Under the pieces are notes generated by a model. That model saw only the letters and a program-made list of their open reading frames with translations, made no database searches and was not told where the DNA came from. Both the position numbers and the translations under genes were made by a program. Below are positions 46,768-63,280 of a DNA stretch of 64,000 nucleotides, in pieces (positions within the stretch are counted from its first letter, which is position 1; each line of letters starts with the position of its first letter). Origin of the DNA: Deferribacterales bacterium (GTDB lineage: Bacteria > Chrysiogenota > Deferribacteres > Deferribacterales > Geovibrionaceae); the NCBI GenBank assembly GCA_050253335.1, contig JBFWJG010000001.1, forward strand, positions 32,001 through 96,000. Direction: 5' to 3'.

Positions 46768-46847
46768 TTAAGTCCTATCAATTGTAATGCGCCCTGATTG
46801 ATGATATATTTAATATAAAGATACAATGCTTTTTGCGGAGGGGCTCT

Positions 46848-48568: not shown

Positions 48569-48595
48569 AGGGGAGCCCTTAGGGCTCCCCTTTTT
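48569..48595 (+). terminator. Intrinsic terminator after MCP
   Basis: AGGGGAGCCC-TTA-GGGCTCCCCTTTTT. Confidence 0.85.
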
Positions 48596-48604
48596 AAAGC
48601 CGAG

Positions 48605-48675
48605 CGAGATAATTTTTACTCAATGGTGAGATAATTTTTTCTTGAAGCGGTTTGATACTGTCAAAAACAGTTTGA
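48605..48675 (+). repeat. Left-end putative transposase binding sites and subterminal palindrome
   Basis: CGAGATAATTTTT (48605) and TGAGATAATTTTT (48627); TCAAAAACAGTTTGA (48661-48675). Confidence 0.7.
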
Positions 48676-48680
48676 AACAC

Positions 48681-48712
48681 GAAAAAGGGCGGGATAAAAA
48701 CCGCCCTTTTTC
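48681..48712. terminator. Bidirectional terminator ending the repressor/cargo operon
   Basis: GAAAAAGGGCGG-GATAAAAA-CCGCCCTTTTTC. Confidence 0.8.
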
Positions 48713-48714
48713 AT

Positions 48715-49458
48715 TTAAATATTGTTCAAAAGTGTTATTGCGTTTTTGTCATTCAAATCATACATTTTTTTCCACTCTGATAGCTGCCTAAAGCTAAGGG
48801 AAGGGAAACCTCTCAATATGTGTTCAACATCATATTCAAAATGGGCATATTTTTCTAAAAGTGCTTCCTGTGATGCCGAAAACATTTTTTCTTTTTTAGT
48901 TGCTATTAATGTGGTCATTAAAAGCTCGTTGTAAATCCAAGGAGAATATGTTGAGTAGTCATTTTCAACAGAGTTATCTGATTCAAGAAAAATAAAAACG
49001 GGTGTTTCCGAAATCATTTTAGTTAAAGCTGTAGACAAAATTATATTAATATTATCTACACACCTTATTATTTGTTTTTTATTACTCATTGATCCAGTTA
49101 GTTCTTTAATCAAATTGTCTTTATATCCCCATACATCTGAATCAATAAATGTTGTTAAATCTAATTCTTTTGATAGCCAGTTTGAAAAATATTGTACTAA
49201 ATCAACATCTGCATGGGAATGAGATAAAAAAATATCTGCATTTATTTGCGGAAACCAATCATTTTCAAGCCTAGCAACGTCAATCGTCTCATTTTTTAGA
49301 ACATCGACCTTCCCTTTCAAATACTGCAAATATGGGCTATAGCTTCTTGTGCTTGCTTTTAGCCTTTTATCAAGTATTTCGCTAAATAAAAGATCTAGTC
49401 TTTTGGATGGTACAAACCTTTTAATTTCTGCTTCATTAATCTTAAACTTAAGGAACAT
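48715..49458 (-). CDS. TIR domain protein (putative anti-phage)
   Basis: DIFLSHSHAD, TFIDS.VW, FIFL...NS, SPWIYNEL with the conserved catalytic-position Glu; very AT-rich. Confidence 0.75.
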   Translation of the reverse strand: MFLKFKINEAEIKRFVPSKRLDLLFSEILDKRLKASTRSYSPYLQYLKGKVDVLKNETIDVARLENDWFPQINADIFLSHSHADVDLVQYFSNWLSKELDLTTFIDSDVWGYKDNLIKELTGSMSNKKQIIRCVDNINIILSTALTKMISETPVFIFLESDNSVENDYSTYSPWIYNELLMTTLIATKKEKMFSASQEALLEKYAHFEYDVEHILRGFPSLSFRQLSEWKKMYDLNDKNAITLLNNI

Positions 49459-49467
49459 GCCTACCTC

Positions 49468-49929
49468 CTATTGAAAATATGTAACAACGAGTGCAACCCC
49501 TGTTAAAATGAAATAAAGAGGAGCAACCGACCAAGTGAAAAAATTGTCTAAAATGGAGCTTACTTTTTTATATGACATATCTGGCTTTAGATTAAAAAGT
49601 GTCCTGTCATCAAATTTACCGTCAAGCATAGCGGTAACAGCTTTATCGTATTTTGCTGTATAATCTTTTCTCAAAGCAGCATAGAGAGCATTCTGAACAC
49701 CAAGAAGCACTATAACGACAAGGCATAAGGGAAGCTTCAAATTTGCCTGAACAGAGTCATTGCTCAAAGCAATAATAGCTCCAACGATAAGTACACAAAG
49801 CATTCTACATTGAGATGAATAAGTAGACATTCTCACTATATTTTGCTGTATAAATTCAAGATAAGCGATAAATGAAGGTGAATCTGCTGTAGGCTTTTTT
49901 GAGCAATCTGAAGAGTCTTTATTTTCCAT
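49468..49929 (-). CDS. Small multi-TM membrane protein, putative effector partner of the TIR protein
   Basis: LEFIQ.NI.RM...S motif followed by about 3 hydrophobic helices; GGAGG RBS couples it to the TIR gene. Confidence 0.65.
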   Translation of the reverse strand: MENKDSSDCSKKPTADSPSFIAYLEFIQQNIVRMSTYSSQCRMLCVLIVGAIIALSNDSVQANLKLPLCLVVIVLLGVQNALYAALRKDYTAKYDKAVTAMLDGKFDDRTLFNLKPDMSYKKVSSILDNFFTWSVAPLYFILTGVALVVTYFQ

Positions 49930-49952
49930 TGTATAACCTTCTATGATTTCTT

Positions 49953-50627
49953 CTATTTTATTGACATTACATAGGTATAAAGCTTTTCGAGCTGCTTGAA
50001 ATTCAGTTCCTTAAGAGATGATATTTCAACGTCCAGTAGCCTTTGAGCTATGATGTAAGCATCATTCTTCTTATACCCTTTTTCCTTGAGCCTAACATGG
50101 ATTGCAACCTGCCAATCTTTCATCACTTGGTTAGAGGTTATGTTGGGGGAGATCTTACGCAAACGTGCTATCTGGCTGTTGAGATACTTTTGAATAGTAG
50201 GAAAATCGACTTGCTTAAGTTGATTATATTTCGTTACTTTAAATCTTCTGCACAAAACCCCATACCACTTTTTATAAAGCCCTTGGCGGGTTTTAGTGTT
50301 GTCTGTGTCAAGGTCAACAAGCTCCTCAATCTTTGTGCGGACGGTGAGCTGTTGGGCAGGTGTTATGTCATCAGGCTGAGGAGCAATGACATGCTTTTCT
50401 GTGATCTTGGGGTTTACGTTCGTGATGAACTGGTTGTTGCTTCCTGCTATCTGGACGTTATTGTTGCCTTCAATGGATTGGCTTACGTTGGTCCGGGAAC
50501 TGACCTGAAGGTTGCCGTCACCTTTAACCTTTTGAGAGGCTCTGCTTGTGTTTCCCAAAGGTTTCTTTCTTTTCTTAGCTTCTTTGAACAAGTCTATAAT
50601 TTTGCCTTTTGTATCTTTGTCAGACAT
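49953..50627 (-). CDS. Phage accessory protein with Q/N/G repeats and ORF6C-like C-terminal region
   Basis: SQ.V.GDGNLQV / SQSIEGNNNVQIAG repeats; W..L..RFKV.KY.QL...DF...KYL resembles ORF6C. Confidence 0.55.
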   Translation of the reverse strand: MSDKDTKGKIIDLFKEAKKRKKPLGNTSRASQKVKGDGNLQVSSRTNVSQSIEGNNNVQIAGSNNQFITNVNPKITEKHVIAPQPDDITPAQQLTVRTKIEELVDLDTDNTKTRQGLYKKWYGVLCRRFKVTKYNQLKQVDFPTIQKYLNSQIARLRKISPNITSNQVMKDWQVAIHVRLKEKGYKKNDAYIIAQRLLDVEISSLKELNFKQLEKLYTYVMSIK

Positions 50628-50649
50628 AATCAGCCTCTAAAATTATTCT

Positions 50650-51114
50650 TTAGTCTTCCATGAGGTTGTCAAATTTATATTTTTTTATACCTGCTTCAAC
50701 AATACTAAATTCATCTTTCAATTTATTGTTCATCAGTACATAGTTATTTTGAAGTCTTGCAAAAATGCAATATGCTATGATTATTACAATTAATGAATGT
50801 ATGGGGCTGAAAATATATGAAACTACGATAACCGATAAAAGAGTAATAATTAACAATACAAACTTGTTCCATTCAAAATTGTCCACGTTTTTCTTGCTTT
50901 CTGCATTAAGTCTGTTAATTTCAGCATTAATCTTTTCAGGACTAATACGAGATTTATTATTAGTAATGTTGAAATACTGGGTAAGGTCTCCTGACAGTTG
51001 TATGTTTCCACTGCCTTTAATATATTGACTTCCCGCCTCATGTGACTTGTATTGTTGATTTTCATCACCGATAATTTTTTGAGATATTTTGTCATCTTTA
51101 TCAGCCATACACAC
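50650..51114 (-). CDS. Two-TM membrane protein with N-terminal Q/N/G repeats
   Basis: SQKIIGDENQQ / SQYIKGSGNIQL, then two hydrophobic helices; start may be the second Met. Confidence 0.6.
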   Translation of the reverse strand: MCMADKDDKISQKIIGDENQQYKSHEAGSQYIKGSGNIQLSGDLTQYFNITNNKSRISPEKINAEINRLNAESKKNVDNFEWNKFVLLIITLLSVIVVSYIFSPIHSLIVIIIAYCIFARLQNNYVLMNNKLKDEFSIVEAGIKKYKFDNLMED

Positions 51115-51116
51115 AC

Positions 51117-51542
51117 CTACGAAGCAAGGCTTATCAAATTGCGTATTTTATCTTTGTCTATAGTTGATTTCTCACTATTCATTGCGTCCTGAAGCAGGAG
51201 CATTACTAGCTTACTTTTCTTATCAGGCTTCATATAGAGGTCATTTTTATCCAATATTTCTTCAACTGTCTCAATAATCACTCTGAGCTTGTTTTCGATA
51301 TTTTGGAAACCATTTGCTACTGTCTTGTACTCTTCTTTTGTATTTCCATTGATAATCCAATTTAAATCTTGGTCATGGCATACTGAGAATATTTTCTCAT
51401 AATCAAGAGAATTTCTTTTTTTCCATGTTGAAACCGTATTGGGCTTGATTTCAAGTAGTTGAGCAAGCTCCACATCACTGTGTAACCCTTTTACTTTTTT
51501 CAAACGCTCAATAACTAAAGTGGCATTTTGCGATTTTTCCAT
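51117..51542 (-). CDS. CI-like prophage repressor (HTH)
   Basis: IERLK......SD.ELA.LL.I...TVSTWKKRNS..DLNWII.G; divergent from Ner-like gene. Confidence 0.85.
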   Translation of the reverse strand: MEKSQNATLVIERLKKVKGLHSDVELAQLLEIKPNTVSTWKKRNSLDYEKIFSVCHDQDLNWIINGNTKEEYKTVANGFQNIENKLRVIIETVEEILDKNDLYMKPDKKSKLVMLLLQDAMNSEKSTIDKDKIRNLISLAS

Positions 51543-51571
51543 TTGACACATTCTCAATTTGCGATTATTAT
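51521..51571 (+). promoter_or_regulatory. Early (lytic-direction) sigma70 promoter with putative repressor operators
   Basis: TTGACA (51543-48), 17 bp spacer, TATTAT (51566-71); near-palindromes TCTCAATTTGCGA (51552-64) and TGGCATTTTGCGA (51521-33). Confidence 0.75.
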
Positions 51572-51604
51572 AACGTATTAAAACAGTTTAGCACGAGGTC
51601 AACG

Positions 51605-51868
51605 ATGACACAATATGAAATCAAAACGGTTTTGACAGAGGAGATTAAACGGAAACTGCTTGAGAAGGGGCATTCCATATCGTCTTGGGCAAGGCTGAAA
51701 GGGTACAGGGTTCAGAACGTCATCACCTACATTGACCGCTATTCATCAAAACCTCAACTGCCTCAAAGTCCAAAGATATATGAAATTTTACTTAACATTC
51801 GCAAAAGTACGGGTGTTGACCTCACAACAGGAAGAATACACAGCATGAGTATAAGAAAAAGTACATAA
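51605..51868 (+). CDS. Ner/Cro-like small DNA-binding protein
   Basis: EIK..L.EKG.SISSWAR..GY HTH pattern; first gene after the early promoter. Confidence 0.7.
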   Translation: MTQYEIKTVLTEEIKRKLLEKGHSISSWARLKGYRVQNVITYIDRYSSKPQLPQSPKIYEILLNIRKSTGVDLTTGRIHSMSIRKST

Positions 51869-51885
51869 GACCTCCTTTGGTTTTG

Positions 51886-51929
51886 CCCTCCGTGTGTTTT
51901 CAGTGCTTCAAGCACGGAGGGATTTTTTT
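51886..51929 (+). terminator. Terminator/attenuator after the Ner-like gene
   Basis: CCCTCCGTG...CACGGAGGG then ATTTTTTT. Confidence 0.55.
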
Positions 51930-51965
51930 CACCACTGGAGAAATAACAATAACGGAGGAAACAGA

Positions 51966-52202
51966 ATGACAGCGGAACAGGCAAGAGAACGGGTAAACGG
52001 AGTTATCAGGCTGTTGGACGGGCTAACAGTAAAGGAAGCTAACCAAGTGCTTGATTCCGTAAGAAGGCAGACACAGGAAGCCATTATAAGACCGCTGGAA
52101 GACGGCATGAATTTGGCTGTTCCCCCCCAAAGAGACAGTTTCATCACTTCGCTTGAGGCTTTGGTTGAACGGCATACTAAAGGCAGTCCTGCCTCTATTT
52201 AA
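51966..52202 (+). CDS. Hypothetical phage protein
   Basis: GGAGG RBS before ATG 51966. Confidence 0.6.
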   Translation: MTAEQARERVNGVIRLLDGLTVKEANQVLDSVRRQTQEAIIRPLEDGMNLAVPPQRDSFITSLEALVERHTKGSPASI

Positions 52203-52213
52203 GGCTTTGTAAG

Positions 52214-52456
52214 GTGGTTATTTTGGAAACTGGATTGAAAGAGACGCTTGTTAGAGAACTAAGTGCAGCAAACCCTGAATATACACCTAAGGACGTTATC
52301 ACCGCCTTAAAGGGTAACAGGGAATGCGCCTTTCTGACGGCGTGTGAGTTTGCGGACTTGGTTCTGGAAATATTTGAAGAAAGCAGCTTGGCGAAGATGT
52401 TTTACAGCATGAGAGAGCTTAAGAGGAGCGGGGGAGAAAAAATCCTCCCCCTTTAG
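52214..52456 (+). CDS. Hypothetical phage protein
   Basis: ORF in early operon orientation; start uncertain. Confidence 0.45.
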   Translation: MVILETGLKETLVRELSAANPEYTPKDVITALKGNRECAFLTACEFADLVLEIFEESSLAKMFYSMRELKRSGGEKILPL

Positions 52457-52614
52457 CCAAGCGATAAGCACCTTAGAACGCTCTGCCCCAACGCTTCCCA
52501 AGAATGCTTACAAGGCTTATGCCAGTTTGATCAGGTGACATGGGTAACGTACAGGCGAATATGCACAAATACACAGGTAACACAGCTTAGGAATTAACGT
52601 CAAAAGAGGTTGAA

Positions 52615-52902
52615 ATGGCAAACAATATACAGAAGTTCGCAAAACTTGTTGATACAGAGGAGTACGGTCAAGTCCTTCTGATGACTCTTTATAACGATGA
52701 GGCAGAACAATATGAGCTTAGATTTATGGTTAATTCAGGCAATCTCACTATTCAGGAATTACGTTGGGGCTTTCTTCCACATGCAACATTAGAAGATATA
52801 TACGACTACTTGATGGATTTTCCTGTTGAGGGAATTGTTGAGGCTATTGGCATGATGATAGAGAGAGCACCTGAAGCATGGATTCAGACGAGGGAGATAT
52901 AA
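52615..52902 (+). CDS. Hypothetical acidic phage protein
   Basis: GAGG RBS, 95 aa. Confidence 0.6.
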   Translation: MANNIQKFAKLVDTEEYGQVLLMTLYNDEAEQYELRFMVNSGNLTIQELRWGFLPHATLEDIYDYLMDFPVEGIVEAIGMMIERAPEAWIQTREI

Positions 52903-52903
52903 G

Positions 52904-53428
52904 GTGCAAGGTACAGGTTTTAAATTAGATACGAGCGAGCTTGAAGATCTTTTCAAGGATCTGTTAGCGAAAATTGCAAATCCTAAACCTGCATTGCGTG
53001 ATATAGGCGAAGCTCTTGTCTCTAGCACAGTCGAACGTCTGTATGATGGTGTCACACCTGAGGGGAAAAAGCAAACACCCGTTAAAAATCGTCCTGGTGA
53101 AACACCCCTATTGGATTCGACAGACTACTCAAGAGGCTTCAAATATGCAGTAGGTAAAGATTGGGTTGTTGTTGGCACGAATAAGCCGCAAGCCCGTCTG
53201 CTGCACAAAGGCGGTGTGCTTGAACCCAAAGTAATCAAATCCAAAGTAGGCAAAGACGGTAAGCGTAAGCCTTTAGCTTTTACCATAGGCGGTAAAAAAG
53301 TCTTTGCCCATAGTGTAAAAATTCCTGCGGTCACAATACCCGCTAGACCGCACATAGGCATAAGTGAAGATGATAAGGAAGAGATAGCCTATCTTATAAG
53401 GCTTTACTTATCAGGAGCAGCAAAATGA
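52904..53428 (+). CDS. Phage virion morphogenesis protein (Mu gpG / P2 gpS family)
   Basis: L..IGE.L..ST..R...G..P.G, VGTN..QA..LH.GG, IPARP.IGIS..D..EI. Confidence 0.85.
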   Translation: MQGTGFKLDTSELEDLFKDLLAKIANPKPALRDIGEALVSSTVERLYDGVTPEGKKQTPVKNRPGETPLLDSTDYSRGFKYAVGKDWVVVGTNKPQARLLHKGGVLEPKVIKSKVGKDGKRKPLAFTIGGKKVFAHSVKIPAVTIPARPHIGISEDDKEEIAYLIRLYLSGAAK

Positions 53429-53589
53429 TAAAAATTTATTTAACAGTATTTTTCGGAACGGTGCTTCTTATGAATGTCTTTAACGGGATTCAACTTATGA
53501 ATCAGAAACCTAACATCATTATAACGGCAATATCTACAGGCATGACAATAGCCCTTTGTATGTTGTTGCTGGCTGCTTTGTGGAAATGA
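53425..53589 (+). CDS. Small two-TM membrane protein (54 aa, below ORF track cutoff)
   Basis: ATGA overlap with the gpG stop, AGGAG RBS; MIKIYLTVFFGTVLLMNVF...IALCMLLLAALWK. Confidence 0.55.
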   Translation: MIKIYLTVFFGTVLLMNVFNGIQLMNQKPNIIITAISTGMTIALCMLLLAALWK

Positions 53590-53598
53590 GGGGGATAT

Positions 53599-53895
53599 AT
53601 GGCTGAAAAAACATACAAGCCCATAGCGGCTGGGTTAAAGATACTCAAAGCTTTAGACATTATCGCAATGAGTTCCGAGCCTGTGACGGTGAAGCGGATA
53701 ACGGAAATGACCGAAGAACCATACGGAACGACCATGACGCACATAGCCACGCTTGAACAGGCTGGCTACATAGAGCGTGTGGGTGACGGATACGCTATCA
53801 CCCTGAAGCTCGGTACGTTCTGGGCAAAGAAAAAGGCAAGCCTTCAAGGGGTAATAACCCGCACACAGGCGGAACTAAGGGAAATAGGAGCATAG
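53599..53895 (+). CDS. IclR-type wHTH protein of Mu-like phages
   Basis: K.L..LD.IA, T...H.ATLEQAGYIER. Confidence 0.75.
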   Translation: MAEKTYKPIAAGLKILKALDIIAMSSEPVTVKRITEMTEEPYGTTMTHIATLEQAGYIERVGDGYAITLKLGTFWAKKKASLQGVITRTQAELREIGA

Positions 53896-53898
53896 GTT

Positions 53899-54897
53899 AT
53901 GAAGCGTGATATTGAATACGAACAGGCACAGCTTGAGGCGGCTGATGACATAGCAGAGATGGAGCTTGCCAAGGTTCAGCAGGTGAAATCAGAGCAACCG
54001 CATAATCAGCAGGAAAGAGAGGCGTTGATTGCGGAAGCGTACAGGCTGACAGGTAGAATTGAAGCATTTTCGACTTTTGCAAAATTTGCCGATGTCGGCA
54101 CTTTGATTATGCTTAAACAAATCAAAGACAACAAGATTTATAAAGATATGCCAAGTCTTGGTACATGGGAAAATTATTGTCAATCAATAGGAATGTCAAG
54201 GAGCAAAGTAGATGAAGACCTCAAAAACCTTGAAATGTTTGGCGAAGCTTTTTTAGCCGACATCGGCAGTTTTGGACTTGGCTATCGTGAACTTCGCAAG
54301 CTCCGCTCCGCCGCTTCGGAAGGAACACTTTCCATAACCGACAATTCTATCACTATCGAAGTGATAGACGGCGAAACAACCAAGCAGGAGACCATACCGT
54401 TGAACGACAAGGACGAGCTGAAGGAAGCCCTTGAGCGTATCATCACCGCCAAAGATGAAGCTCTTGCCGCTAAAGACCGTGAGCTGAAGGCGCAGGAAAA
54501 GCTAACAGAGTTCAACAAAAACGAGTGGGATAAAAGCGAAAAACAACTTCTTACAGCCACAAAAGAGCTTAATAAGCTGACTGGCAAGGGTGTTATAAAC
54601 GGCGTACCTTCTGATGATTACCCCATCTTCTCAAGGCTTTCAAGCGTTGCTTCGGACATAACGGGCATTTATGCAGAGCTGAAGCAGATTCATGCGGAAA
54701 CGCTTTCTGACAACAACACCCAGTATCTCCACGGAACAATCATGTACATGGTTCAACTTGCCAGTGAGCTTTCATTCCTTGTGCCTGCGGGCATAGGAGA
54801 CATGGAGGCAACGCCCGATGAAATTGACGAGATAGCAGACGGTTTACCTCTCCCCGGCATACGCAACCTGCCTAATTACGGAAAGGCTGAAAGGTAA
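53899..54897 (+). CDS. DUF3102-like protein preceding the Mu-like transposase
   Basis: L..IK..K.YK...TWE.YC..IGMSRSKVDEDL.NL..FGE.F....GLGYR.LRKLR. Confidence 0.65.
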   Translation: MKRDIEYEQAQLEAADDIAEMELAKVQQVKSEQPHNQQEREALIAEAYRLTGRIEAFSTFAKFADVGTLIMLKQIKDNKIYKDMPSLGTWENYCQSIGMSRSKVDEDLKNLEMFGEAFLADIGSFGLGYRELRKLRSAASEGTLSITDNSITIEVIDGETTKQETIPLNDKDELKEALERIITAKDEALAAKDRELKAQEKLTEFNKNEWDKSEKQLLTATKELNKLTGKGVINGVPSDDYPIFSRLSSVASDITGIYAELKQIHAETLSDNNTQYLHGTIMYMVQLASELSFLVPAGIGDMEATPDEIDEIADGLPLPGIRNLPNYGKAER

Positions 54898-54901
54898 GCA
54901 T

Positions 54902-56683
54902 ATGTCACCTGAAGCTCTGAATCACATAAAAACCTCTCTTGAGACCTGCGAAACGCCTAAGGAACGCACCATCGAAGCCGCAAGGTTGAGTGAGTTCTAC
55001 GGTATTTCTACCGCTTCATTTTGGAGATGGGCAAACAAGGCGGGTTTTCGGGTGCGTTCGGCACGCTCCGACAGGGGTAAAAGCGAGCTGACAGATGACG
55101 AGTTGAAGCTTATAGCCGCTAGAGTGCTTGTGGGCAAGCAGTTAAGGAACAAGTTTACCAACTCCGTTAAAAACGCCCTTGAGGAGCTTGCAAGAGAGGG
55201 GTTCACCTTCCCTGTGGGGTATGAACGTATATGCTCACTGCTTCGTGAAAAGGGGTACGACAAGGAGAGCTTGGCGACTATTCCGCCCCATGTAAGGCTT
55301 ATCTCAAAGCACCCGAACGAGACATGGCAGTTTGATGTTACCAACTGCTTACAGTGGCATTTGGACAAGAAAACAGGGCTTACAGAGCGTGATTTGGAGA
55401 TGAATTTCTACAGCAACAAGGCTGTGAAGTTTCTTAAAACCATCAAAAGGGAGCTTCTCCGCTTCGTTATGGTTGACCATTGCACGGGTGCTTTTTTCTT
55501 CTGGTATTACTATGTTCCCGGCGAACGTGCAGAGGAAGGGGCGGACTTCTTTTATAAGGCTTTTGCTAGGAAAGACAGCCTCATACAGACCTATCTGAAC
55601 TCTGAAACAGGCATGTACCAGATGCACGGAGTACCTTTCAGGCTTGTTTCCGACAAGGGGTCAATCCTTAGGCATAAGTCTATTATCAACCTTATGGACG
55701 CTCTTGATGTGAAGATTGAGCTTCATGCCGCAGGCAACCCAAGGGCAAAAGGCAAGGTTGAACGCCTTATGCGCACCATAGGCACTAAGTTTGAAACAAT
55801 CCTGAAAGTACGCCGACCTGTAGACCTTGCCGAGCTGAACCGATGGGCATTGGCATGGTGCATTAACCATAATCAGACCTTCGTGAGCAAAAAGAAGGAG
55901 CTTCCTGCCGCTGAATACTGGCTGAAGATAAGGCAGACAGAACTTAGGCTTTGCCCTCCCGAAGAGCTTTTTAAGACCCTTATACACAGGGCGGATTATG
56001 AAAGAACGGTTGACGGCAGTGGGCATATATCATTCCACGGACGGGAGTATTTTATCAAAGATGTCAACGCCGTACGCAAGAAGGTTAAGGTCACTATCAA
56101 TGCCTATGAATACCCACTGATTGATATTCATTTTGACGGGCATGTATGGAAGACCGCCCCTATAGGAACAGACGAATACGACAGGCTGATAAGCCCTGCA
56201 AACGTTGAATACGGCACTTACAGGGCATTACCCCATACCATCACGCAAAAGCATATCAGCGAGCTTGAACAGGTGGCTATAGACAACTTTGGAGTCGGTT
56301 TTAAGGGTAATAAGCAGAAACGCCAGTCCATAGCCCCAGAACGAGGCAAAGAGAAGATTAAACCTATGGATAAGGTCATTCAGCCTGAGAAGGTTCACCA
56401 TCTTCAGAAACAGGGCATTGAGCTTGTAACGCCTGATATCCATGCACCTTTGACGGAAAAAGAGGAAAGGCACTACACCGTTACGCTTCTGTTTGACACT
56501 GGTGAAAAACGCCTTAGCACAACCGACTTGATACTCCGTATTGTTCGGGAGGTTCGTAAGCTCTCGGTTGAGGAAAATAAAGCGATAAAAGCACGTTGGA
56601 AGAACGGAGTAACAGCCACAGAGGCAGACCAAATTATACAGAACATGCTGGAGGTGACACATGCCGAGAGTAATTACAGCTAA
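54902..56683 (+). CDS. MuA-like DDE transposase
   Basis: R..RSDRG, HPNE.WQFD (D1), SDKGS (D2), GNPRAKGKVER (E). Confidence 0.9.
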   Translation: MSPEALNHIKTSLETCETPKERTIEAARLSEFYGISTASFWRWANKAGFRVRSARSDRGKSELTDDELKLIAARVLVGKQLRNKFTNSVKNALEELAREGFTFPVGYERICSLLREKGYDKESLATIPPHVRLISKHPNETWQFDVTNCLQWHLDKKTGLTERDLEMNFYSNKAVKFLKTIKRELLRFVMVDHCTGAFFFWYYYVPGERAEEGADFFYKAFARKDSLIQTYLNSETGMYQMHGVPFRLVSDKGSILRHKSIINLMDALDVKIELHAAGNPRAKGKVERLMRTIGTKFETILKVRRPVDLAELNRWALAWCINHNQTFVSKKKELPAAEYWLKIRQTELRLCPPEELFKTLIHRADYERTVDGSGHISFHGREYFIKDVNAVRKKVKVTINAYEYPLIDIHFDGHVWKTAPIGTDEYDRLISPANVEYGTYRALPHTITQKHISELEQVAIDNFGVGFKGNKQKRQSIAPERGKEKIKPMDKVIQPEKVHHLQKQGIELVTPDIHAPLTEKEERHYTVTLLFDTGEKRLSTTDLILRIVREVRKLSVEENKAIKARWKNGVTATEADQIIQNMLEVTHAESNYS

Positions 56684-57866
56684 TGCACGGGAAATCAACC
56701 TAAAACGGATAATACAGGCTGCACGTATGACGCAGGAAGGTTTCCGTACCATGTTGGCAGAGGAAGCGCAGATAGATATAGCGCAGTCAAGCTTCAAGCT
56801 GCTTCTGCAAAAAGGGATTATCCCTAAATGGATAGATAAGAAGCAGGTTGAAGGCTTTGTCATGACAAGGCTGCCTTTCGTTATGCAGTCACAGGAACTG
56901 ACAGCCCCGCAGATATGGGATTATGCGGAGCAGGAACAGGGTAAAAGGTTCGTGTTTGAAGCAAGCGAAGACGATTATGCCAAAAAGTTAAAAACATACA
57001 TGGAGATTACTATGCTTAGATTGGATACAATGAGGCATTTCAAACTGGCTCAGAACCCTTTCATTTTGGATATACGCAGAGAGAGCGAGATATTCATGGG
57101 TTCATCTCATCAATTCGCCTTTGAAGTGATGAAACAGACGGCGGAAACAGGCGGGTTTGCCGTTATCACGGGTGAAGTCGGAGCGGGTAAATCAACCGTT
57201 CGCCGCAAGTTTTTTGAGGACTCAAGGCAGAATAAGATTTGCCAGATTATTTACCCTGAATCAATCGACAAATCACGTTTGACTGCTAAGGACGTTCTGT
57301 ATTCCATCATCTACGACCTGACCGAAGCCAAGCCGCAGGGCAATAAAGAAGCCCTAAGCAGGCAGGCAAAGGCACTGCTGCTTGCCAGAAGCAACAACAA
57401 TGAGCGTACGGTTCTGGTTATCGAAGAGGCTCACGACCTGCCTGTTACCACCTTGAAGTTTCTTAAGCGCATATGGGAGCTTGAAAACGGTTTACAGAGG
57501 CTTTTAGGCATTATTCTCATAGGTCAGAATGAGCTTGAGACAAGGCTTTACGGACGAAACAGTACGGAGATAAGGGAAGTGACCGCAAGAACCGCTCATG
57601 CAAGGGTTGAAGCTCTCGGCAAGGAAATGCCTTCTTACATAGCTCACAAGTTCAAATGCGCTAAGGCAGATGTGAACAGGATTATTTCACCTGAAGCACT
57701 TAAGCTTTTGGTTGACTGTATGAAGATAACCGACCGTATGGGCAAAGAAAAATCAATGGGGTATCCGCTCTTTGTGAGCAATGTGATGATAAGGCTTATG
57801 AACTACGCAGCAGAAGCGGGGGAAGAGCTTATAACCCCTGAAATAATAGAGACGGTAGGAGTTTAG
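56661..57866 (+). CDS. MuB-like / ExeA-family AAA transposition ATPase with N-terminal extension
   Basis: NPF, GEVGAGKST, VLVIEEAH, ILIGQ.EL; overlaps the transposase end. Confidence 0.88.
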   Translation: MPRVITANAREINLKRIIQAARMTQEGFRTMLAEEAQIDIAQSSFKLLLQKGIIPKWIDKKQVEGFVMTRLPFVMQSQELTAPQIWDYAEQEQGKRFVFEASEDDYAKKLKTYMEITMLRLDTMRHFKLAQNPFILDIRRESEIFMGSSHQFAFEVMKQTAETGGFAVITGEVGAGKSTVRRKFFEDSRQNKICQIIYPESIDKSRLTAKDVLYSIIYDLTEAKPQGNKEALSRQAKALLLARSNNNERTVLVIEEAHDLPVTTLKFLKRIWELENGLQRLLGIILIGQNELETRLYGRNSTEIREVTARTAHARVEALGKEMPSYIAHKFKCAKADVNRIISPEALKLLVDCMKITDRMGKEKSMGYPLFVSNVMIRLMNYAAEAGEELITPEIIETVGV

Positions 57867-57867
57867 C

Positions 57868-58233
57868 ATGGAAAGAGTAGGCATATTTATTATCAGGTAT
57901 GACGGGCGTTTTATGGTTATGCCTGACGGTACGGGAACGTTAAGAGGCTTTTTAGAAGAAGGGGAGACCCCAACCGATGCGGCAGTCAGAGTTTTGGCGA
58001 ACTCTGCCCCATGCGGCTACACAGGCTCTCCCGTGTTTGTTATATCCGAAAAAACAGAGGTTGCGAAGGATTATCTGTTTGCCGTCCGTGCGGCAAAGCA
58101 TGACGGCAGATTTTTGAGCCACAAAGAACCTACGGATATGGTTCAGTGCTTAGCTTGGACTTCTCTGCGTCAGGCTGAAAAGAAAGAAAAATATGTAAAG
58201 AAACAAATAGCTGATAAGGCGGTGAACTCATGA
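57868..58233 (+). CDS. Nudix-fold-like protein with degenerate Nudix box
   Basis: GFLEEGETPTDAAVRVLANS matches G-x5-E-x7-R but lacks the catalytic Glu residues. Confidence 0.5.
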   Translation: MERVGIFIIRYDGRFMVMPDGTGTLRGFLEEGETPTDAAVRVLANSAPCGYTGSPVFVISEKTEVAKDYLFAVRAAKHDGRFLSHKEPTDMVQCLAWTSLRQAEKKEKYVKKQIADKAVNS

Positions 58234-58436
58234 GCTACACACATAACATGACAAACGCAGAACGGCTTAGAGAGCTGGCTAAACTAAGCAGCACGGTTGG
58301 TGAGTTTCAGGACAAAGCCATATCGGGCGTAATGCTGAAAATGACTTTATCAGAGTTTGAAACAGAGCTGGAAACCATGAAGGTAGGGGATCTGCACGAC
58401 TACTTTGAAAAGGTCAAAAACGGAGATGGAAAATGA
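58230..58436 (+). CDS. Hypothetical phage protein
   Basis: ATGA-coupled on both sides. Confidence 0.6.
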   Translation: MSYTHNMTNAERLRELAKLSSTVGEFQDKAISGVMLKMTLSEFETELETMKVGDLHDYFEKVKNGDGK

Positions 58437-58918
58437 CCATACAAAACTGGAACGATGTTGATAAGGCACTCCGCCTTATCGGTGAAAAAGAAATAGCACT
58501 GGCAAATATAGACGGCGATATGACGCTTAAAATAAACGCTGTGAAAGAGGACGCAAAACAAGCAGCCGAAACCATAGCCATAGAGAAAAAGGAGCTTGAA
58601 AAGGCTGTAGAGGGCTTTTGTGAGGCGAATAAGGCTGAGTTTGCCCTTAAACGCAGCAAAGAACTTACTTTCGGTGAGATAGGTTACAGGCTGGTTAAGT
58701 CCGTATCCATTCCAAGAGTTAAAACTAAGCTTGAATCACTCATAAAGAGCTTAAAGGTTTTCGGGCTTTCCGACTGCATTACATACACCGAAGCAGTGGA
58801 CAAGGACAAGCTTACGGAATTGAAAGATGAAGACCTTGTAAAGCTCGGTTTAAAGCGCACCGTCAAGGATTCGTTCCGTATCAAAACCAACATTGAGAAG
58901 GTTAAGGAAGTCGGTTGA
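58433..58918 (+). CDS. gam: Host-nuclease inhibitor Gam family protein
   Basis: I.NWNDVD.AL..IGE, FC..NK.EF...RS.EL.FG.IGYR, E.VDK..L. Confidence 0.85.
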   Translation: MTIQNWNDVDKALRLIGEKEIALANIDGDMTLKINAVKEDAKQAAETIAIEKKELEKAVEGFCEANKAEFALKRSKELTFGEIGYRLVKSVSIPRVKTKLESLIKSLKVFGLSDCITYTEAVDKDKLTELKDEDLVKLGLKRTVKDSFRIKTNIEKVKEVG

Positions 58919-58949
58919 ACCCCAAGTACCAATTTAGCAGGAGATAGCT

Positions 58950-59237
58950 ATGAACACGAAAAGTCAGACGGTTTTCAATCAAAGCTTCCAAGAGGTTGTA
59001 GAGGTTGTGGGTATGGAAGGGGCGATAAAGCTTTGTGAAGTCTTTGGTGGGCTTGAAATATACATTCCAAAAATGGACTACCTAAAACGCTTGGAGAGGA
59101 ACAGAGCTATAGTTGACGCTTATGACGGTACTCAAGCTTCTATTGCCCTGCTTGCTAAAGAATACCAGCTTTCTTCAAACCAAATCAGAGTGATTTTGAG
59201 AGGAAGGAAGACACGAAATAAGGAGATTGAAGCATGA
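58950..59237 (+). CDS. mor: Mor/C family transcription activator
   Basis: G.E.A.KL...FGG..IYIPK...RNR.I...YDG....LA.EY.LS..QIR.IL. Confidence 0.88.
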   Translation: MNTKSQTVFNQSFQEVVEVVGMEGAIKLCEVFGGLEIYIPKMDYLKRLERNRAIVDAYDGTQASIALLAKEYQLSSNQIRVILRGRKTRNKEIEA

Positions 59238-59752
59238 GCAATAGGAAATATTACACTCTTACGGGAGAAAGTCTTAAAAAGGTTAAAGTATTTGTTGATG
59301 AGCTTCAGGCAGTCTTTAAGAAAAGGAATGAGTACATGAAAATAAACAATTTCGCAGGACTCACGCATGGCGGTGGAGTTGTTAGCGGAGTGATTTTGAA
59401 GGAACAATCTGACGATAAAAAGTGGCGAAAAAGAAAAAAGGCTTCGCAGTACGGATACGCTCATTACCCATCAAACACAAAAGAAGGCAAAAAGATTTCA
59501 GGTGAGCTAAGCAGACTTAGAGGAAAGGATATGATGGCTTTCAGCGATGAATTTAACCTGCCTTTAGCGTTTACAATGGAAGGCTTATACACATCGGCAG
59601 TTCATCTTGTAGGCGAAAACATTATTTTGACTGTTCCAGAGCCAGAAGAAATTAAGCCTGAACACCCTTTTTTCAAAGACGCTACCCTGCTTAAGCTAAG
59701 CGAGTATTACGCACTCAAAGAGCAGGTGCTAGAAGCCGAAACGCCCCGCTAG
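59234..59752 (+). CDS. Hypothetical phage protein
   Basis: ATGA-coupled; its stop codon overlaps loop III of hammerhead 1. Confidence 0.65.
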   Translation: MSNRKYYTLTGESLKKVKVFVDELQAVFKKRNEYMKINNFAGLTHGGGVVSGVILKEQSDDKKWRKRKKASQYGYAHYPSNTKEGKKISGELSRLRGKDMMAFSDEFNLPLAFTMEGLYTSAVHLVGENIILTVPEPEEIKPEHPFFKDATLLKLSEYYALKEQVLEAETPR

Positions 59753-59791
59753 GGGTGTCTGGTGGGAGTAACCGCCCATCACTGACGAGGC
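59735..59791 (+). ncRNA. Type II hammerhead ribozyme 1
   Basis: GCC-GAAA, stem III ACGCCCC/GGGGTGT, GUC (cleavage after 59759), stem I TGGTGGG/CCCATCA, CUGACGA, GGC closing stem II. Confidence 0.9.
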
Positions 59792-59808
59792 AGGTTAAGG
59801 AGTTATCC

Positions 59809-59970
59809 ATGTGGAAATATATTGTTGGCTGGTTCATCGTGAACACTGTTTTTGCTATCTACGAAGAAATCGTATATGGCAAAGCTTTCGTACATATTTT
59901 TGACATTCTTAATGTGCTTTTTTGGGGTGGTTTGTATCTCCTTGAACTTTTCGGAGGAGCATATGAATAG
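59809..59970 (+). CDS. Small two-TM membrane protein
   Basis: AAGGAG RBS right after hammerhead 1; hydrophobic 53 aa. Confidence 0.6.
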   Translation: MWKYIVGWFIVNTVFAIYEEIVYGKAFVHIFDILNVLFWGGLYLLELFGGAYE

Positions 59971-60523
59971 GGTAACGGCAAAGCAGGTTCAGCTGATTCA
60001 TATAGCCAAAAAGCAGCTTGAAATATGCGATGACGATTACCGCAGTATTTTGAATGAATACTTCAAAGTTAGGAGTTCTAAAGACCTTACGGAACGTCAG
60101 GCTGAAAGACTGATTACTCATTTCAGGCAAAAAGGTTTCCGTATAAACACCGCCAAGAAAGCCAAGCCTACAGGCTCTACTATTATCGCTTTCCCTACAT
60201 CATTTCAGCTTGAGCTTATAGAGGTTTTAAAAAGCAATATCGTATGGAAAGCAGGATTTGAGGGGTTTCAGCTTTGGCTTGAAAAGCGAATGAGGATTAA
60301 GAAAATTCGCACAAAGCAAGAGGCGGCAAAAGTCATTGAAGGCTTGAAAGCCATGCTTGGGATTGATGCCGAGATAATCAAAATGAAATCGCTGCCTTTC
60401 CCTATATGCCTTGATGAAGCCTACTTTATAGATAACTTCACGGGTGAGGTTCTGCCCTTCAGGTGGGTTTATGACATTGAAAAAAGAAAGCTTATCAGAA
60501 TTGAAAACTCTATATGGAGATAA
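59963..60523 (+). CDS. GemA / DUF1018 regulatory protein
   Basis: Q..LIHIAK.QL...DD.YR..L......SSKDLT; A.KVIEGLKAM. Confidence 0.85.
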   Translation: MNRVTAKQVQLIHIAKKQLEICDDDYRSILNEYFKVRSSKDLTERQAERLITHFRQKGFRINTAKKAKPTGSTIIAFPTSFQLELIEVLKSNIVWKAGFEGFQLWLEKRMRIKKIRTKQEAAKVIEGLKAMLGIDAEIIKMKSLPFPICLDEAYFIDNFTGEVLPFRWVYDIEKRKLIRIENSIWR

Positions 60524-60525
60524 AT

Positions 60526-60714
60526 ATGAGAATAACTTGTACTGCACAGATTCGCCCTTACTGCTTTTTTGGAACGGGGAAGTGCTGCCTTGCTTGTCCG
60601 TTAAACCAGAAGTGCCGCGAAGAAAATAAAAAGAAAGGTTGTAAGCTTATACCTTGCGGTGATGAACACGCCGAATCTTTAAAAGAGTGTGGATTCTGCT
60701 CCATTGAGAAGTAA
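60526..60714 (+). CDS. Small cysteine-rich protein (10 Cys in 62 aa)
   Basis: GGAG RBS; CC..C, C..C pattern. Confidence 0.55.
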   Translation: MRITCTAQIRPYCFFGTGKCCLACPLNQKCREENKKKGCKLIPCGDEHAESLKECGFCSIEK

Positions 60715-60753
60715 GTGAAGATCTTAACAAAATTATATAAAAAGGAGATTAAA

Positions 60754-61221
60754 ATGAAAAACTGGGAAGACGTTTCAGCCGGAATAAGCAGGCTGACCGC
60801 AATTAAGCACGAAAAAAAGCAATTAAAAATCACAGCCGGAAGAGTGGCGGACAGTGTTATTAACGAACTTGTCAAAAGAAGAGACGATGAAATCAACGCA
60901 ATCAGAATGAAGTACGCTGAACTTATTCCGCAGGAACAGGCAAAAACGATAAAAGAGATCTCTTCCAAAAAAGACAAGCTCAATGAAGAAGCTTTTGAGC
61001 TTGAAGAATCTATAAAAGATTACGTGCTTCAAAGCAAGGAAACAAAGGAGATAAAAGAGCTAATCGAACAGCCATACAAAAGAGATGACAATTCACCGTA
61101 TGAGTTTAATAAGACCTTCAGAGAGGGGAGTATATACTATCGGAACAACCTTCCTTTCACCATACCTCCGTCATATTCAAGAAGTGAAGAGATTCAGATT
61201 ATATTGAATTGTGATAGGTGA
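60754..61221 (+). CDS. Divergent Gam-like coiled-coil protein
   Basis: AAGGAG RBS; MKNWEDVSAGISRL resembles the Gam N-terminus; LEESIKDYV and KTF.EG.I.YR echo the Gam C-terminal half. Confidence 0.55.
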   Translation: MKNWEDVSAGISRLTAIKHEKKQLKITAGRVADSVINELVKRRDDEINAIRMKYAELIPQEQAKTIKEISSKKDKLNEEAFELEESIKDYVLQSKETKEIKELIEQPYKRDDNSPYEFNKTFREGSIYYRNNLPFTIPPSYSRSEEIQIILNCDR

Positions 61222-61225
61222 ATCA

Positions 61226-61828
61226 ATGGCTTGGGATAAAATAGCACGAACAGGCTCTTTTACTGATATGAACGGAAATACATACACCTTCACCGATGAT
61301 ATTCTCAAACGTTTGGTGCGTTCTTTCAAAACTGGTTCAGAAAAAGTACCCCTTGTCTTAGGTCACCCTGAAACAGACTATCCTGCACATGGTTGGATAA
61401 AAGATTTAAGAGTAAATAACGGCTTTCTTGAAGCTCAATATGAAAACCTCTCTGAAGAGTTGAAAAGACTCGTACAGGAAGGACGGTTTAAATATAAAAG
61501 TATCTCCGTTAATGGCGGTCTGACCAAGTTGAAGCACTTAGGCATACTAGGTGCGGTTGCACCTGCTATGAGCGGCTTAGGGAGCATTCAGTTTAATAAA
61601 TATGATAACGGCATTGTGATGTACTTTGCTGAAAAGGTCATGGAGGGAAATATGACATTAGAAGAATTAGGTAAAATGGTTGAGCAACAGCAAGACGAAA
61701 TCGAAAAATGCAGAAGGGACATTGACGCACTTATGAAGGCAATCGCCGCAGGCGGTACTTCATCGTCTAGCTTCGCAAGTTCCAGTCACTACGGTGTATC
61801 AGGGCAGAAAATGGCAAGTAAGCTTTAA
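61226..61828 (+). CDS. Mu gpI-like prohead protease domain with short C-terminal scaffold-like tail
   Basis: I.RTG.FTDMNG, PLVLGHP....PA.GWI..L, V..GRFK..SIS, L.HLG.LGA..PA..GL; internal GGAGGG-ATG at 61652. Confidence 0.82.
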   Translation: MAWDKIARTGSFTDMNGNTYTFTDDILKRLVRSFKTGSEKVPLVLGHPETDYPAHGWIKDLRVNNGFLEAQYENLSEELKRLVQEGRFKYKSISVNGGLTKLKHLGILGAVAPAMSGLGSIQFNKYDNGIVMYFAEKVMEGNMTLEELGKMVEQQQDEIEKCRRDIDALMKAIAAGGTSSSSFASSSHYGVSGQKMASKL

Positions 61829-61833
61829 CCTGA

Positions 61834-61887
61834 AGCCGAAACAGGGGAAAGCCCCCTGTCTGCAACTAAGCTTGTACTGATGAGGCT
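61834..61887 (+). ncRNA. Type II hammerhead ribozyme 2
   Basis: AGCC-GAAA, stem III ACAGGGG/CCCCTGT, GUC (cleavage after 61860), stem I TGCAA/TTGTA, CUGAUGA, GGCT closing stem II. Confidence 0.9.
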
Positions 61888-61971
61888 GCGGTAAAAAATT
61901 TAAAAACGACCCGCAAAAAATTACAAAAAACACACATCTTCAAAAAATTCAAAAAAAATCCTGAAAACCAA

Positions 61972-62072
61972 TCAAAACAGTTTTGACATTTAACACAAAA
62001 GGAGCGGAGTGTAAGACACCTGTTAAGAGATTTTTCTAAATTATCTCATCATTAGCGGGTTCTTATCTTACA
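61972..62072 (-). repeat. Right-end putative transposase binding sites and terminal CA
   Basis: Minus strand reads TG-TAAGATAA...TGAGATAATTT (22 bp spacing, as at the left end); palindrome TCAAAACAGTTTTGA at 61972-61986. Confidence 0.72.
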
Positions 62073-62093
62073 CCCCGTCACCTTTTTGTTTGT

Positions 62094-62894
62094 TTATTTT
62101 ACAGAAAAGCCCACTACGGCTTCGGGGGTGATCACTCTGAATGTGAATGATTCCGTAAGGAACAGGTGCACCTTTTCGGAATCGTGGTTGTGGTAGCCAA
62201 CTGCAAAATCCTGCCCTATTGTGAGTTCAAGGTCGCCTTCCCTGTCAGCGACGAGGAGAGCACCGTCAACCGCTTCCGAATAGACAACGGAACCTTTGAT
62301 CTGCTGTTTGATCAGGTCTCCCAGTGTTCCGCCGGGGAAGAGCCGTGCGAGGTATTTCCACAGAGCGGGATTGACAACGAGATTTGCGCCGCCTGTAATC
62401 CCTTCCTTCATCATGCGTGTCTGAGCTTCGCTCACAGCGTCCACTATGCTGTCCTTGTCCAGAGTCATTGCAATTTTTGACTTGGCAGTAAGCTGGTTCA
62501 AGCCCACAATGCCGCTGTCCTTAAAACCGTTGAAAACAGCATTTTCCTCGAATGCAGCAAGCTTTCTGGCCGCTTCGGTGAGGGGCTCCAGCTCAAGGTC
62601 TTTTGCGCCTCTGTCTATGTTGTCCAGCTCCCATATATCAAGGGAGAAATTGACTCTCGCCTCAACAAGAGGAAGTATTTTGTGTACACCGAAGCATACC
62701 TCTCCTGCTTTCTGCTTAGCGGGCAGAGCAAGGCGCCCGAGGCTGACTGAAGTGTAATCTATGCCGTAAGGGCCTTCAACATCCGCAAACTTTCTGGCTG
62801 AAAGGTTAGCGGACAGGGTTTCTTTAGCGAGTGTGTTTATTTCTTTCCATGCTGCTGCGCTTATCGGTGCGAAATCTTTTCTGAGCAGATTCAT
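62094..62894 (-). CDS. Family 1 encapsulin shell protein (Linocin M18/HK97 fold)
   Basis: MNLL.K.FAPIS..AW.EI, R.F.DV.GPYG, WELDN..RGA.D, AA.KLA.FE, GQDF.VGY, ESFTFRV..PEA. Confidence 0.93.
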   Translation of the reverse strand: MNLLRKDFAPISAAAWKEINTLAKETLSANLSARKFADVEGPYGIDYTSVSLGRLALPAKQKAGEVCFGVHKILPLVEARVNFSLDIWELDNIDRGAKDLELEPLTEAARKLAAFEENAVFNGFKDSGIVGLNQLTAKSKIAMTLDKDSIVDAVSEAQTRMMKEGITGGANLVVNPALWKYLARLFPGGTLGDLIKQQIKGSVVYSEAVDGALLVADREGDLELTIGQDFAVGYHNHDSEKVHLFLTESFTFRVITPEAVVGFSVK

Positions 62895-62908
62895 ATATTC
62901 CTCCTTGG

Positions 62909-63280
62909 TTATTTTTTCTTCAGGCTGCCGATTCCGAGCCCGCCGCTTTCGCCTGCCGCCGGTTCCGCGCCTTCGGCGGAAGCGCCTGAAAGAAATTCGT
63001 CTTCCACTTCTTTATATCCCTGCTGATAAAACTCTTCCTCCTGAGGATCAAGCTCCTTGAGCAGACGGAGAAATTCTCCGGCGTGCACCTTCTCCTCGTC
63101 GGCTATATCCATAAGAACCGCCTGAGCCAGCTTGTTGTCGGTGGATTCGGCAAGCTGCTGATAAAGCTGGATAGCTTCATATTCTGCCGCAACCATGAAA
63201 CGGATGGCTCTGACAAGTTCCTGGTCTGTAAGTTTCCGGTCGTGTTTCAAACCGCTGAAGGGATTTCCAAAATCGGGCAT
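62909..63280 (-). CDS. Ferritin-like encapsulin cargo protein with C-terminal targeting peptide
   Basis: RA.R...AE.EA...Y.Q, DIADEEKVHAGEF; flexible linker then GLGIGSLK. Confidence 0.9.
   Translation of the reverse strand: MPDFGNPFSGLKHDRKLTDQELVRAIRFMVAAEYEAIQLYQQLAESTDNKLAQAVLMDIADEEKVHAGEFLRLLKELDPQEEEFYQQGYKEVEDEFLSGASAEGAEPAAGESGGLGIGSLKKK

Follow-up and report, generated by a model that had tools for sequence, protein, structure and literature searches.

A compact B3/BcepMu-type transposable element without virion genes, and a tail-bearing relative with nearly the same ends, in a Deferribacterales genome

The element and its gene content

The genome of a Deferribacterales bacterium (GenBank assembly GCA_050253335.1, here G000; a 2.58-Mb draft of 142 contigs, among them C9, C15 and C16) contains a discrete insertion of low guanine-cytosine (GC) content, located between a chemotaxis-receptor gene (46833-48560, + strand) and an encapsulin/EncFtn pair (62094-63280, - strand). 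The window that we analyzed is a 64-kb stretch of this genome (contig JBFWJG010000001.1, positions 32,001 to 96,000), and coordinates that carry no contig label are positions in this window. The insertion spans 48595-62080 (13,486 bp) and consists of a long early operon with transposition genes, an opposing repressor gene and a set of cargo genes behind the repressor, all held between two inverted ends (Table 1). A preliminary description made from the sequence alone had proposed a mini-Mu with a transposition and regulatory kit and almost no virion genes. The compact transposable unit with intact ends and without virion genes that it outlined is borne out by the ends, the target duplication and the gene content. 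Taken together, the sequence identifies the element as a delimited and apparently intact derivative, devoid of virion genes, of a B3/BcepMu-type transposable phage; it resides in the same genome as a tail-bearing relative with nearly the same ends.

Table 1. Features of the element and its borders (positions in the 64-kb window)
Feature	Position	Strand	Evidence or remark
Left copy of target duplication	48589..48594	.	CCTTTT, in the T-tract of the chemotaxis-receptor gene terminator
Y end (late-arm end)	48595..48676	+	5'-TAAAGCCGAGC; GAGATAA repeats at 48606 and 48628; 92.5% identical to sibling end on C16
ThsB-like TIR protein, 247 aa, cargo	48715..49458	-	PADLOC PDLC00430 E 4.9e-40; phrog_33368
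153-aa cargo protein like candidate defence protein PDC-M50A	49468..49929	-	PADLOC E 2.3e-12
224-aa cargo protein	49953..50627	-	phrog_17822; weakly like C-terminal part of the G007 repressor-position protein
154-aa cargo protein	50650..51114	-	no family above threshold
CI-type repressor, 146 aa, helix-turn-helix only	51117..51557	-	PF07022 E 2e-9
Best sigma-70-like promoter of the element	51543..51571	+	TTGACA-17-TATTAT, 11/12; just upstream of early operon
Small helix-turn-helix protein, Ner position, 87 aa	51605..51868	+	phrog_8503 E 2e-10; phrog_925 E 5.5e-4
Three small early ORFs, 102, 80 and 95 aa	51894..52902	+	no family
gpG-like / Neck1 / tail-completion-family protein, 174 aa	52904..53428	+	PF05069 E 4.5e-19, full length; phrog_26 E 1.5e-21
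Winged-helix protein, 98 aa	53599..53895	+	conserved upstream of transposase in relatives
332-aa early protein, conserved	53899..54897	+	phrog_4623
DDE transposase, 593 aa	54902..56683	+	phrog_310 E 1e-51; D145, D251, E287
MuB-like AAA+ transposition ATPase, 401 aa	56661..57866	+	phrog_296 E 6.4e-42; PF13401 E 6.6e-20
Gam-like DNA-end-protection protein	58433..58918	+	PF07352 E 1.4e-34
Mor-family transcription activator	58950..59237	+	PF08765 E 4.9e-13
GemA-like protein, 223 aa	59852..60523	+	PF06252 E 3.7e-15
Two ORFs, 66 and 168 aa, coupled to the GemA and protease genes	60514..61221	+	no family
Short prohead (capsid-maturation) protease, 200-205 aa	61211..61828	+	phrog_976 E 3e-34
X end (early-arm end)	61971..62080	-	read inward 5'-TGACGGGGTGTAAGATAAG; 91% identical to sibling end on C9
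Right copy of target duplication	62081..62086	.	CCTTTT

The early genes contain no frameshift or stop, in agreement with the preliminary description, and the DDE triad that it had called intact is invariant in 10 relatives. Two of the triad residues, D251 and E287, coincide with the catalytic D and E in an alignment with TnsB. Sequence searches of the PDB with the transposase alone and with the protease alone returned no match. The MuB-like ATPase, Gam, Mor and GemA of the preliminary description were all recovered by family searches, while its repressor/Ner switch stands in one half: the repressor is of the CI type, and the small protein that faces it occupies the Ner position (phrog_925, E 5.5e-4) and is at most a putative Ner. 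The best promoter-like site lies just upstream of the early operon; the total number of such sites in the element does not exceed that in shuffled sequences. Besides the genes of Table 1, two small open reading frames (ORFs) separate the MuB-like ATPase from Gam and two more separate Mor from GemA, and the X end follows 252 bp past the protease gene, which is the last of the operon. The 168-amino-acid (aa) protein encoded just upstream of the protease matched no family (Atlas best score 0.77) and nothing in IMG/VR. Over 171 aa, the 332-aa protein shares 60% identity with its counterpart in a more distant relative (G007:C10, locus L069:17791-18819), while the neighbouring transposase is only ~29% identical to that of G007; the early operon is mosaic.

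On the other arm, the cargo genes have a GC content of 33-38%, against 42-48% elsewhere in the element, and their operon closes with its own terminator directly at the conserved 80-bp end. None of the three genes neighbouring the ThsB-like gene matches a ThsA model, and the pairing of ThsB with ThsA that makes up Thoeris was not found. The repressor consists of a helix-turn-helix part only, whereas the repressors of relatives measure 221-244 aa and have an additional S24/UmuD-like part.

Ends and target site

The termini were set by homology to a sibling copy in the same genome. This places them at 48595 and 62080, with a perfect 6-bp direct repeat, CCTTTT, on both sides. The limits of 48603 and 62072 proposed earlier thus enclosed the right ~13.5-kb unit without reaching its exact termini, and these limits together with a 5-bp duplication, the length known for Mu, were rejected on the same homology. 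Another candidate end, TGAAGCGG (48643), paired with ..CTTCA (61942), was discarded as well, as its flanks mismatch. Both ends share one layout of 11 bases, [G/A]AGATAA, 15 bases and GAGATAA. The inverted GAGATAA-type motifs noticed earlier are therefore present at each end as a pair, spaced 22 bp apart and in inverted orientation at the two ends. This double motif occurs seven times in the 2.58-Mb genome (both strands), three of them being ends of the element or the sibling, and copies of the end motif inside the element are no more numerous than expected by chance. The X end carries the terminal TG/CA.

In the same-genus genome G003, the receptor and encapsulin genes are adjacent and the target sequence is present once, representing the empty site. 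Together with the sibling, this amounts to two elements at two different sites, each with a perfect 6-bp duplication and an empty site found.

Some further features of the ends and their surroundings may be recorded here. A motif of ~30 bases, AAAACAG(T)TTTGA..AACAC..AAAAGG.GCGG, lies inside both ends (48663-48692 and 61973-62007) in the same orientation, that is, not inverted. Both insertions are located in intrinsic terminators: the element in the T-tract past the hairpin of the receptor gene (48569-48594), and the sibling at the hairpin foot behind a desulfoferrodoxin gene (C9:45760-45792 with C16:34040-34058). With two insertions only, this could reflect a target preference or the survival of harmless insertions. 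The right neighbour, which is outside the element, encodes a host encapsulin (PF04454, E 2.5e-82) and is accompanied by an EncFtn/rubrerythrin-like cargo gene. Encapsulins are akin to HK97-type capsid proteins, and the weak PHROG 'major head protein' match of this one (E 5.5e-4) fits that kinship.

A sibling prophage in the same genome

The sibling ends with 5'-TGAAGCCGAGCGAGAAAA at C16:34059 and with 5'-TGACGGGGTGTAAGATAAG, read inward, at C9:45793. It represents a single insertion, marked by its own 6-bp duplication, ACAGGC; in another genome (G002), its flanks abut with a 6-bp overlap. The ends of sibling and element are 91-92% identical, while their coding DNA is 70-75% identical, and this higher identity of the ends suggests that the two share end recognition. 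Their transposases are 75% identical, with saturated synonymous divergence (dS) and a ratio of nonsynonymous to synonymous divergence (dN/dS) of at most 0.2. By this divergence, the two copies in the genome are old relatives.

Behind the Y-type end of the sibling, and read toward that end, are genes for a Dam-type methyltransferase, a tail-fibre chaperone, a tail fibre, a Baseplate_J protein, a gp25-like protein and a spike. The opposite end of the sibling is reached 136 bp after Mor, its last gene there; the Mor of the element is 36-46% identical to it. No overlap joins the two contig ends of the sibling to any other contig. The search for a Mu-like helper that the preliminary description had suggested has therefore yielded a tail-bearing sibling with near-identical ends, only partly assembled, rather than a full phage.

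The GemA homologue of the sibling (C9:46251-46783) is split over two frames into ORFs of 125 and 60 aa, by a frameshift or an assembly error. Elsewhere in the genome, a lone Mu-type portal gene (PF06074 E 1.6e-88, 371 aa) and a large terminase gene (phrog_38 E 1e-125) occupy C15 9715-12264. They are followed by two small ORFs; XRE/CI-type regulators and a ParA-like gene lie to one side of the locus, host-like genes to the other, and it may be another reduced phage-derived element.

Full-size relatives and the missing late arm

The relatives of the element are, by their gene order, B3/BcepMu-type phages with two diverging arms and not Mu-ordered ones. The F-G-I-T order of Mu, which the preliminary description had used as a yardstick, is thus the wrong standard for this group. 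BcepMu is described with the same two-arm layout (PMC2771037). By transposase, the nearest named phages, which are B3-type, Stenotrophomonas and Burkholderia ones (Komp_PAO1_1, phiSHP3, B3 and Burkholderia phages), are 25-29% identical, and all of them measure 36-46 kb. All seven relatives that are readable on the repressor side carry late genes there: five loci from metagenome-assembled genomes and G040 (6/6), plus the more distant G007. Behind the repressor and on the same strand, a few variable genes are followed by an endolysin or amidase gene, and then by terminase or tail genes where the sequence reached that far. In G007, the late order is amidase, small terminase subunit (TerS), large terminase subunit (TerL), portal, MuF-like protein, protease (293 aa), decoration protein and major head protein, continuing with a head-tail adaptor, a Neck1/gpG-like protein, sheath and tube. 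The idea that the relatives themselves lack late genes was ruled out, as the Mor end is a phage end and the late genes lie on the other arm.

One relative, G040 (G040:C10 1-40000; transposase 49% identical), has an amidase gene and small ORFs followed by sheath, tube, tape measure and baseplate genes and two fibre sets. PHROGs gave neither TerS nor TerL for it, and no portal, protease or major head protein; this relative could be a variant of a transposable phage without heads, possibly tailocin-like.

Scans of the 25 ORFs of the element against Pfam and PHROGs revealed no terminase, portal, capsid-shell, tail or lysis family, and tblastn with the late proteins of relatives found neither a match nor a late-gene fragment in the element. 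The absence of virion genes noted earlier is thereby upheld. Compared with its relatives, the element is without the entire late arm, which would lie between the cargo on the repressor side and the final 80-120 bp of the Y end, and the four low-GC cargo genes occupy its place. The virion genes would thus be missing because the late arm, which lies behind the repressor in relatives, was lost, and their absence needs no special explanation. This limits the earlier argument that a single deletion could not have produced the element: it holds for the position of two early-strand morphogenesis-type genes, which late-arm loss leaves unexplained, and fails for the absence of virion genes, for which removal of the late arm alone suffices.

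Loss of the late arm is also the starting point of a plainer explanation, which we consider possible but rather unlikely: a full-size B3/BcepMu-type prophage lost its late arm and became inert, the rest being in decay or kept for immunity or for the cargo, with the two odd genes as leftovers of an older recombination without a present role. An internal deletion keeps both ends and the target duplication, as seen here, all readable relatives are full-size on the repressor arm, and the GC content of the cargo arm departs from that of the rest. Decay sits poorly with early genes free of frameshifts and stops, with the lack of any late-gene fragment, and with a cargo operon whose own terminator falls right at the conserved 80-bp end.

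Two morphogenesis-type genes on the early strand

The gpG-like and protease genes are both on the early strand and are joined to their neighbours by overlaps or gaps of 1-10 bp, while in the full-size relatives G006 and G007 such genes are on the late strand. At the corresponding positions, none of ten relatives has a homologue of either. Judged from the layout of the relatives, no single deletion would place these two genes in the early operon. Such early-strand, tightly coupled placement cannot be produced by deletion, and this counts against an inert remnant.

The assignment of the first gene as gpG-like is confirmed by its Pfam match. It is the sole copy in the genome, and a search for close homologues of its protein gave one distant match, with none in IMG/VR. 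The second gene, formerly called gpI-like, is supported as a prohead protease by phrog_976, whereas the Pfam model Mu-like_Pro (PF10123) matched it neither in the protein scan nor in the genome scan; this model was silent in control genomes too. Its protein has no IMG/VR match, and JGI contigs give only 36-44% identical homologues on short contigs.

Among the best 150 of 3,787 homologues, proteases are mostly 270-420 aa long, and the matching domain is N-terminal. The short form of the element consists of the protease domain, one long helix and the conserved C-terminal ..SKL tail common to long forms; it is without the ~90 aa of helical, coiled-coil, scaffold-like middle found in relatives. 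The residues H47, S92 and H104 are invariant in 40 homologues. A second short form of 189 aa is 60% identical and ends at the same residue, which indicates that the short form has been kept over considerable divergence. From its sequence, then, the short protease is not a stump, and its conservation in another sequence again speaks against a remnant in decay. When an AlphaFold model (pLDDT 85) was compared with PDB folds, nearly all of the top matches were herpesvirus assemblins, with probabilities of 0.9-1.0 but E-values of 3e-3 or weaker and TM-scores of 0.3-0.44; phage T4 gp21 is a weaker match.

These two genes also invite a more elaborate proposal, namely that the element is a satellite in the strict sense, multiplying by replicative transposition, riding in the particles of a related transposable phage and tampering with their capsid assembly. 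It would sense and exploit its helper, and the early expressed short protease-scaffold and Neck1/gpG-like proteins would enter helper procapsids, altering them by changing capsid size or diverting assembly, while its Mor would switch on helper late genes, by analogy with P4 and P2. We regard this proposal as doubtful. In the short protease, the catalytic residues and the C-terminal tail persist while the scaffold-like middle is lacking, both morphogenesis-type genes are in the early operon, and Mor is kept in an element devoid of late genes, all of which would suit such a satellite. With headful packaging, however, a mini element could travel in helper capsids that undergo no remodelling, as known from mini-Mu. 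Moreover, its Mor is only 36-46% identical to that of the sibling, the head genes of the sibling are not assembled, and the compact form is known from one lineage.

Copies in public sequencing runs

Logan contigs of four public runs were compared with the window: X1, the probable source run, X2, from another study and habitat, and X3 and X4. This evidence consists of contigs only, and some records may be filtered out. In X1, contigs bridge both junctions of the element with 0 differences, and one contig covers 48626-62045. In X2, four contigs cover ~12.7 kb of 48778-61484 with 3 differences, one of them (8,937 bp) running through the cargo arm, the repressor, the early operon and Mor. The left flank (46800-47900) has a depth of 0 in X2, and no X2 contig on the right flank agrees with the window: they show 113 differences in 1,204 bases (~90.6% identity) and ~3x the depth of the element. 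By this depth and divergence, the same compact element is present in X2 outside the context of the present genome. The earlier suggestion to look for the same gene order elsewhere has thus turned up a near-identical copy without these flanks, and no diverged compact relative in 68 genomes of the phylum, IMG/VR or JGI contigs. Another X2 contig starts exactly at 48595, has 5 differences and stops matching at 48676. Such a pattern is expected of a sibling-type Y end, and a sibling-type phage is thus also indicated in X2. X3 and X4 yield dispersed pieces with 0-1 differences, some of them from the ThsB-like, gpG-like and protease genes, too sparse to show anything about the flanks. These data make a good case, though not a proof, for a recent spread of the compact form; a copy with so few differences in another study, without the flanks of the present genome, is also difficult to reconcile with an inert remnant.

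In X1, the summed depth rises to ~6 above the baseline of the element in three bins only (51208-51758, 52861-53411 and 53963-54513), corresponding to the repressor and early promoter, the gpG-like gene and the 332-aa gene. The depth comes from other contigs, at least 85% alike, that are absent from the assembly.

The same contigs bear on the possibility of an assembly artefact, i.e. a chimeric contig that joins an early region to unrelated DNA. The assembly is a draft of 142 contigs and the sibling is broken at contig ends, which gives some cause for such a suspicion. Misassembly had also been named in the preliminary description as a way in which its proposal could fail. X1 contigs bridge both junctions and the interior, and refute the artefact as far as contigs show; the 8,937-bp X2 contig spans cargo, repressor, early operon and Mor; the target duplication is perfect and a relative has the empty site. 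We therefore consider a chimera exceedingly improbable.

A natural mini-Mu as the favoured interpretation

On balance, we lean modestly towards the reading that the element is a natural 'mini-Mu': a working, compact, non-autonomous derivative of a B3/BcepMu-type transposable phage that depends on a relative for its particles. Its repressor appears to face a strong early promoter with the uninterrupted early operon downstream. Upon derepression, the element would still copy itself by transposition, while being unable to build particles or lyse the cell. Movement from cell to cell would require a related phage to provide heads and tails, and the co-resident sibling, with ends that are 91-92% identical, is a candidate helper. 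The short protease, with its presumed capsid-targeting tail, and the Neck1/gpG-like protein would be expressed together with the early genes and could act on the assembly of the helper.

Several observations weigh against this interpretation. The Y terminus is TA in the element, both in the genome and in the X1 contig, and TG in the sibling, so that the transferred strand would end in ..TA-3' instead of ..CA-3'. The terminal CA dinucleotide matters for Mu-type transposases, and this copy may be impaired, as would befit a remnant. The module loss in G040 shows that transposable phages of this group can shed whole modules, which makes plain decay a live alternative for the element too. Diverged compact relatives were found neither in 68 genomes of the phylum, nor in IMG/VR (searched with proteins and the end sequence), nor in JGI contigs, and from these searches only one compact lineage is known, again in keeping with a remnant. 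Purifying selection, as measured against the sibling, reflects for the most part the period preceding any late-arm loss. As for the helper, the middle of the sibling is absent from the draft, in which all contigs are at least 2.6 kb, and a scan of the genome found no Phage_sheath_1, Mu-like_gpT, Mu-like_Pro or Mu-type capsid family. The flank argument from X2 relies on contigs with possible filtering of records, and the extra depth in X1 may mean that an unassembled relative shares those parts of the element, including the gpG-like gene. On the other side, a helper-type sibling in the same genome and a sibling-type end in X2 fit the mini-Mu, and they fit the strict satellite likewise.

Relation to known systems and significance

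The element shares with B3/BcepMu-type phages (36-40 kb) the transposase PHROG, the MuB-like ATPase, Gam, Mor and GemA, the terminal TG..CA at the X end and the short target duplication, and its relatives show their layout, with regulators and transposase toward one end and lysis, head and tail genes toward the other. It differs from them in its size of 13.5 kb, in the lack of lysis, terminase, portal, capsid and tail genes, in having four cargo genes in place of the late arm, and in the Neck1/gpG-like and shortened protease genes on its early strand. Prophages of Mu type with a fresh deletion would similarly retain the transposition module with both ends and miss the virion block. Here, however, no full-size parent was found at the site, genomes of the same genus have the empty site, and the gene order differs from that of every full-size relative read.

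A laboratory mini-Mu retains the two ends together with its repressor and transposition genes but is devoid of virion genes, and a helper Mu supplies the particles. The element resembles this pair in that transposition would be expected on its own and packaging only by a helper. It differs by being natural, of the divergent B3/BcepMu type, and equipped with Gam, Mor, GemA, two morphogenesis-type genes and defence-like cargo. Phage satellites, such as P4, the phage-inducible chromosomal islands (PICIs) and the PICI-like elements (PLEs), have in common with it a small size, their own maintenance and replication genes, a few assembly-related genes, the lack of most virion genes and a related phage of the complete type in the same genome. 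In contrast to these, the element inserts and would replicate by DDE transposition instead of an integrase and a replicon, and no family of diverged members is known. Helper dependence and hijacking are, for the element, putative.

To our knowledge, all described phage satellites use integrases and replicons of their own. No natural satellite of the transposable-phage kind was found described in full-text literature searches, whose coverage did not extend to the largest survey of transposable phages (Zhang et al. 2023, ISME J). If the element does act as a satellite, it would represent a class not yet described, and a transposing satellite packaged together with flanking host DNA would be a new way to parasitise phages and a powerful carrier of host genes and defence cargo. 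On the more modest reading as a natural mini-Mu, the element and its sibling would be the natural counterpart of the laboratory pair of mini-Mu and helper, with both partners residing in one genome, where their relation is directly testable.

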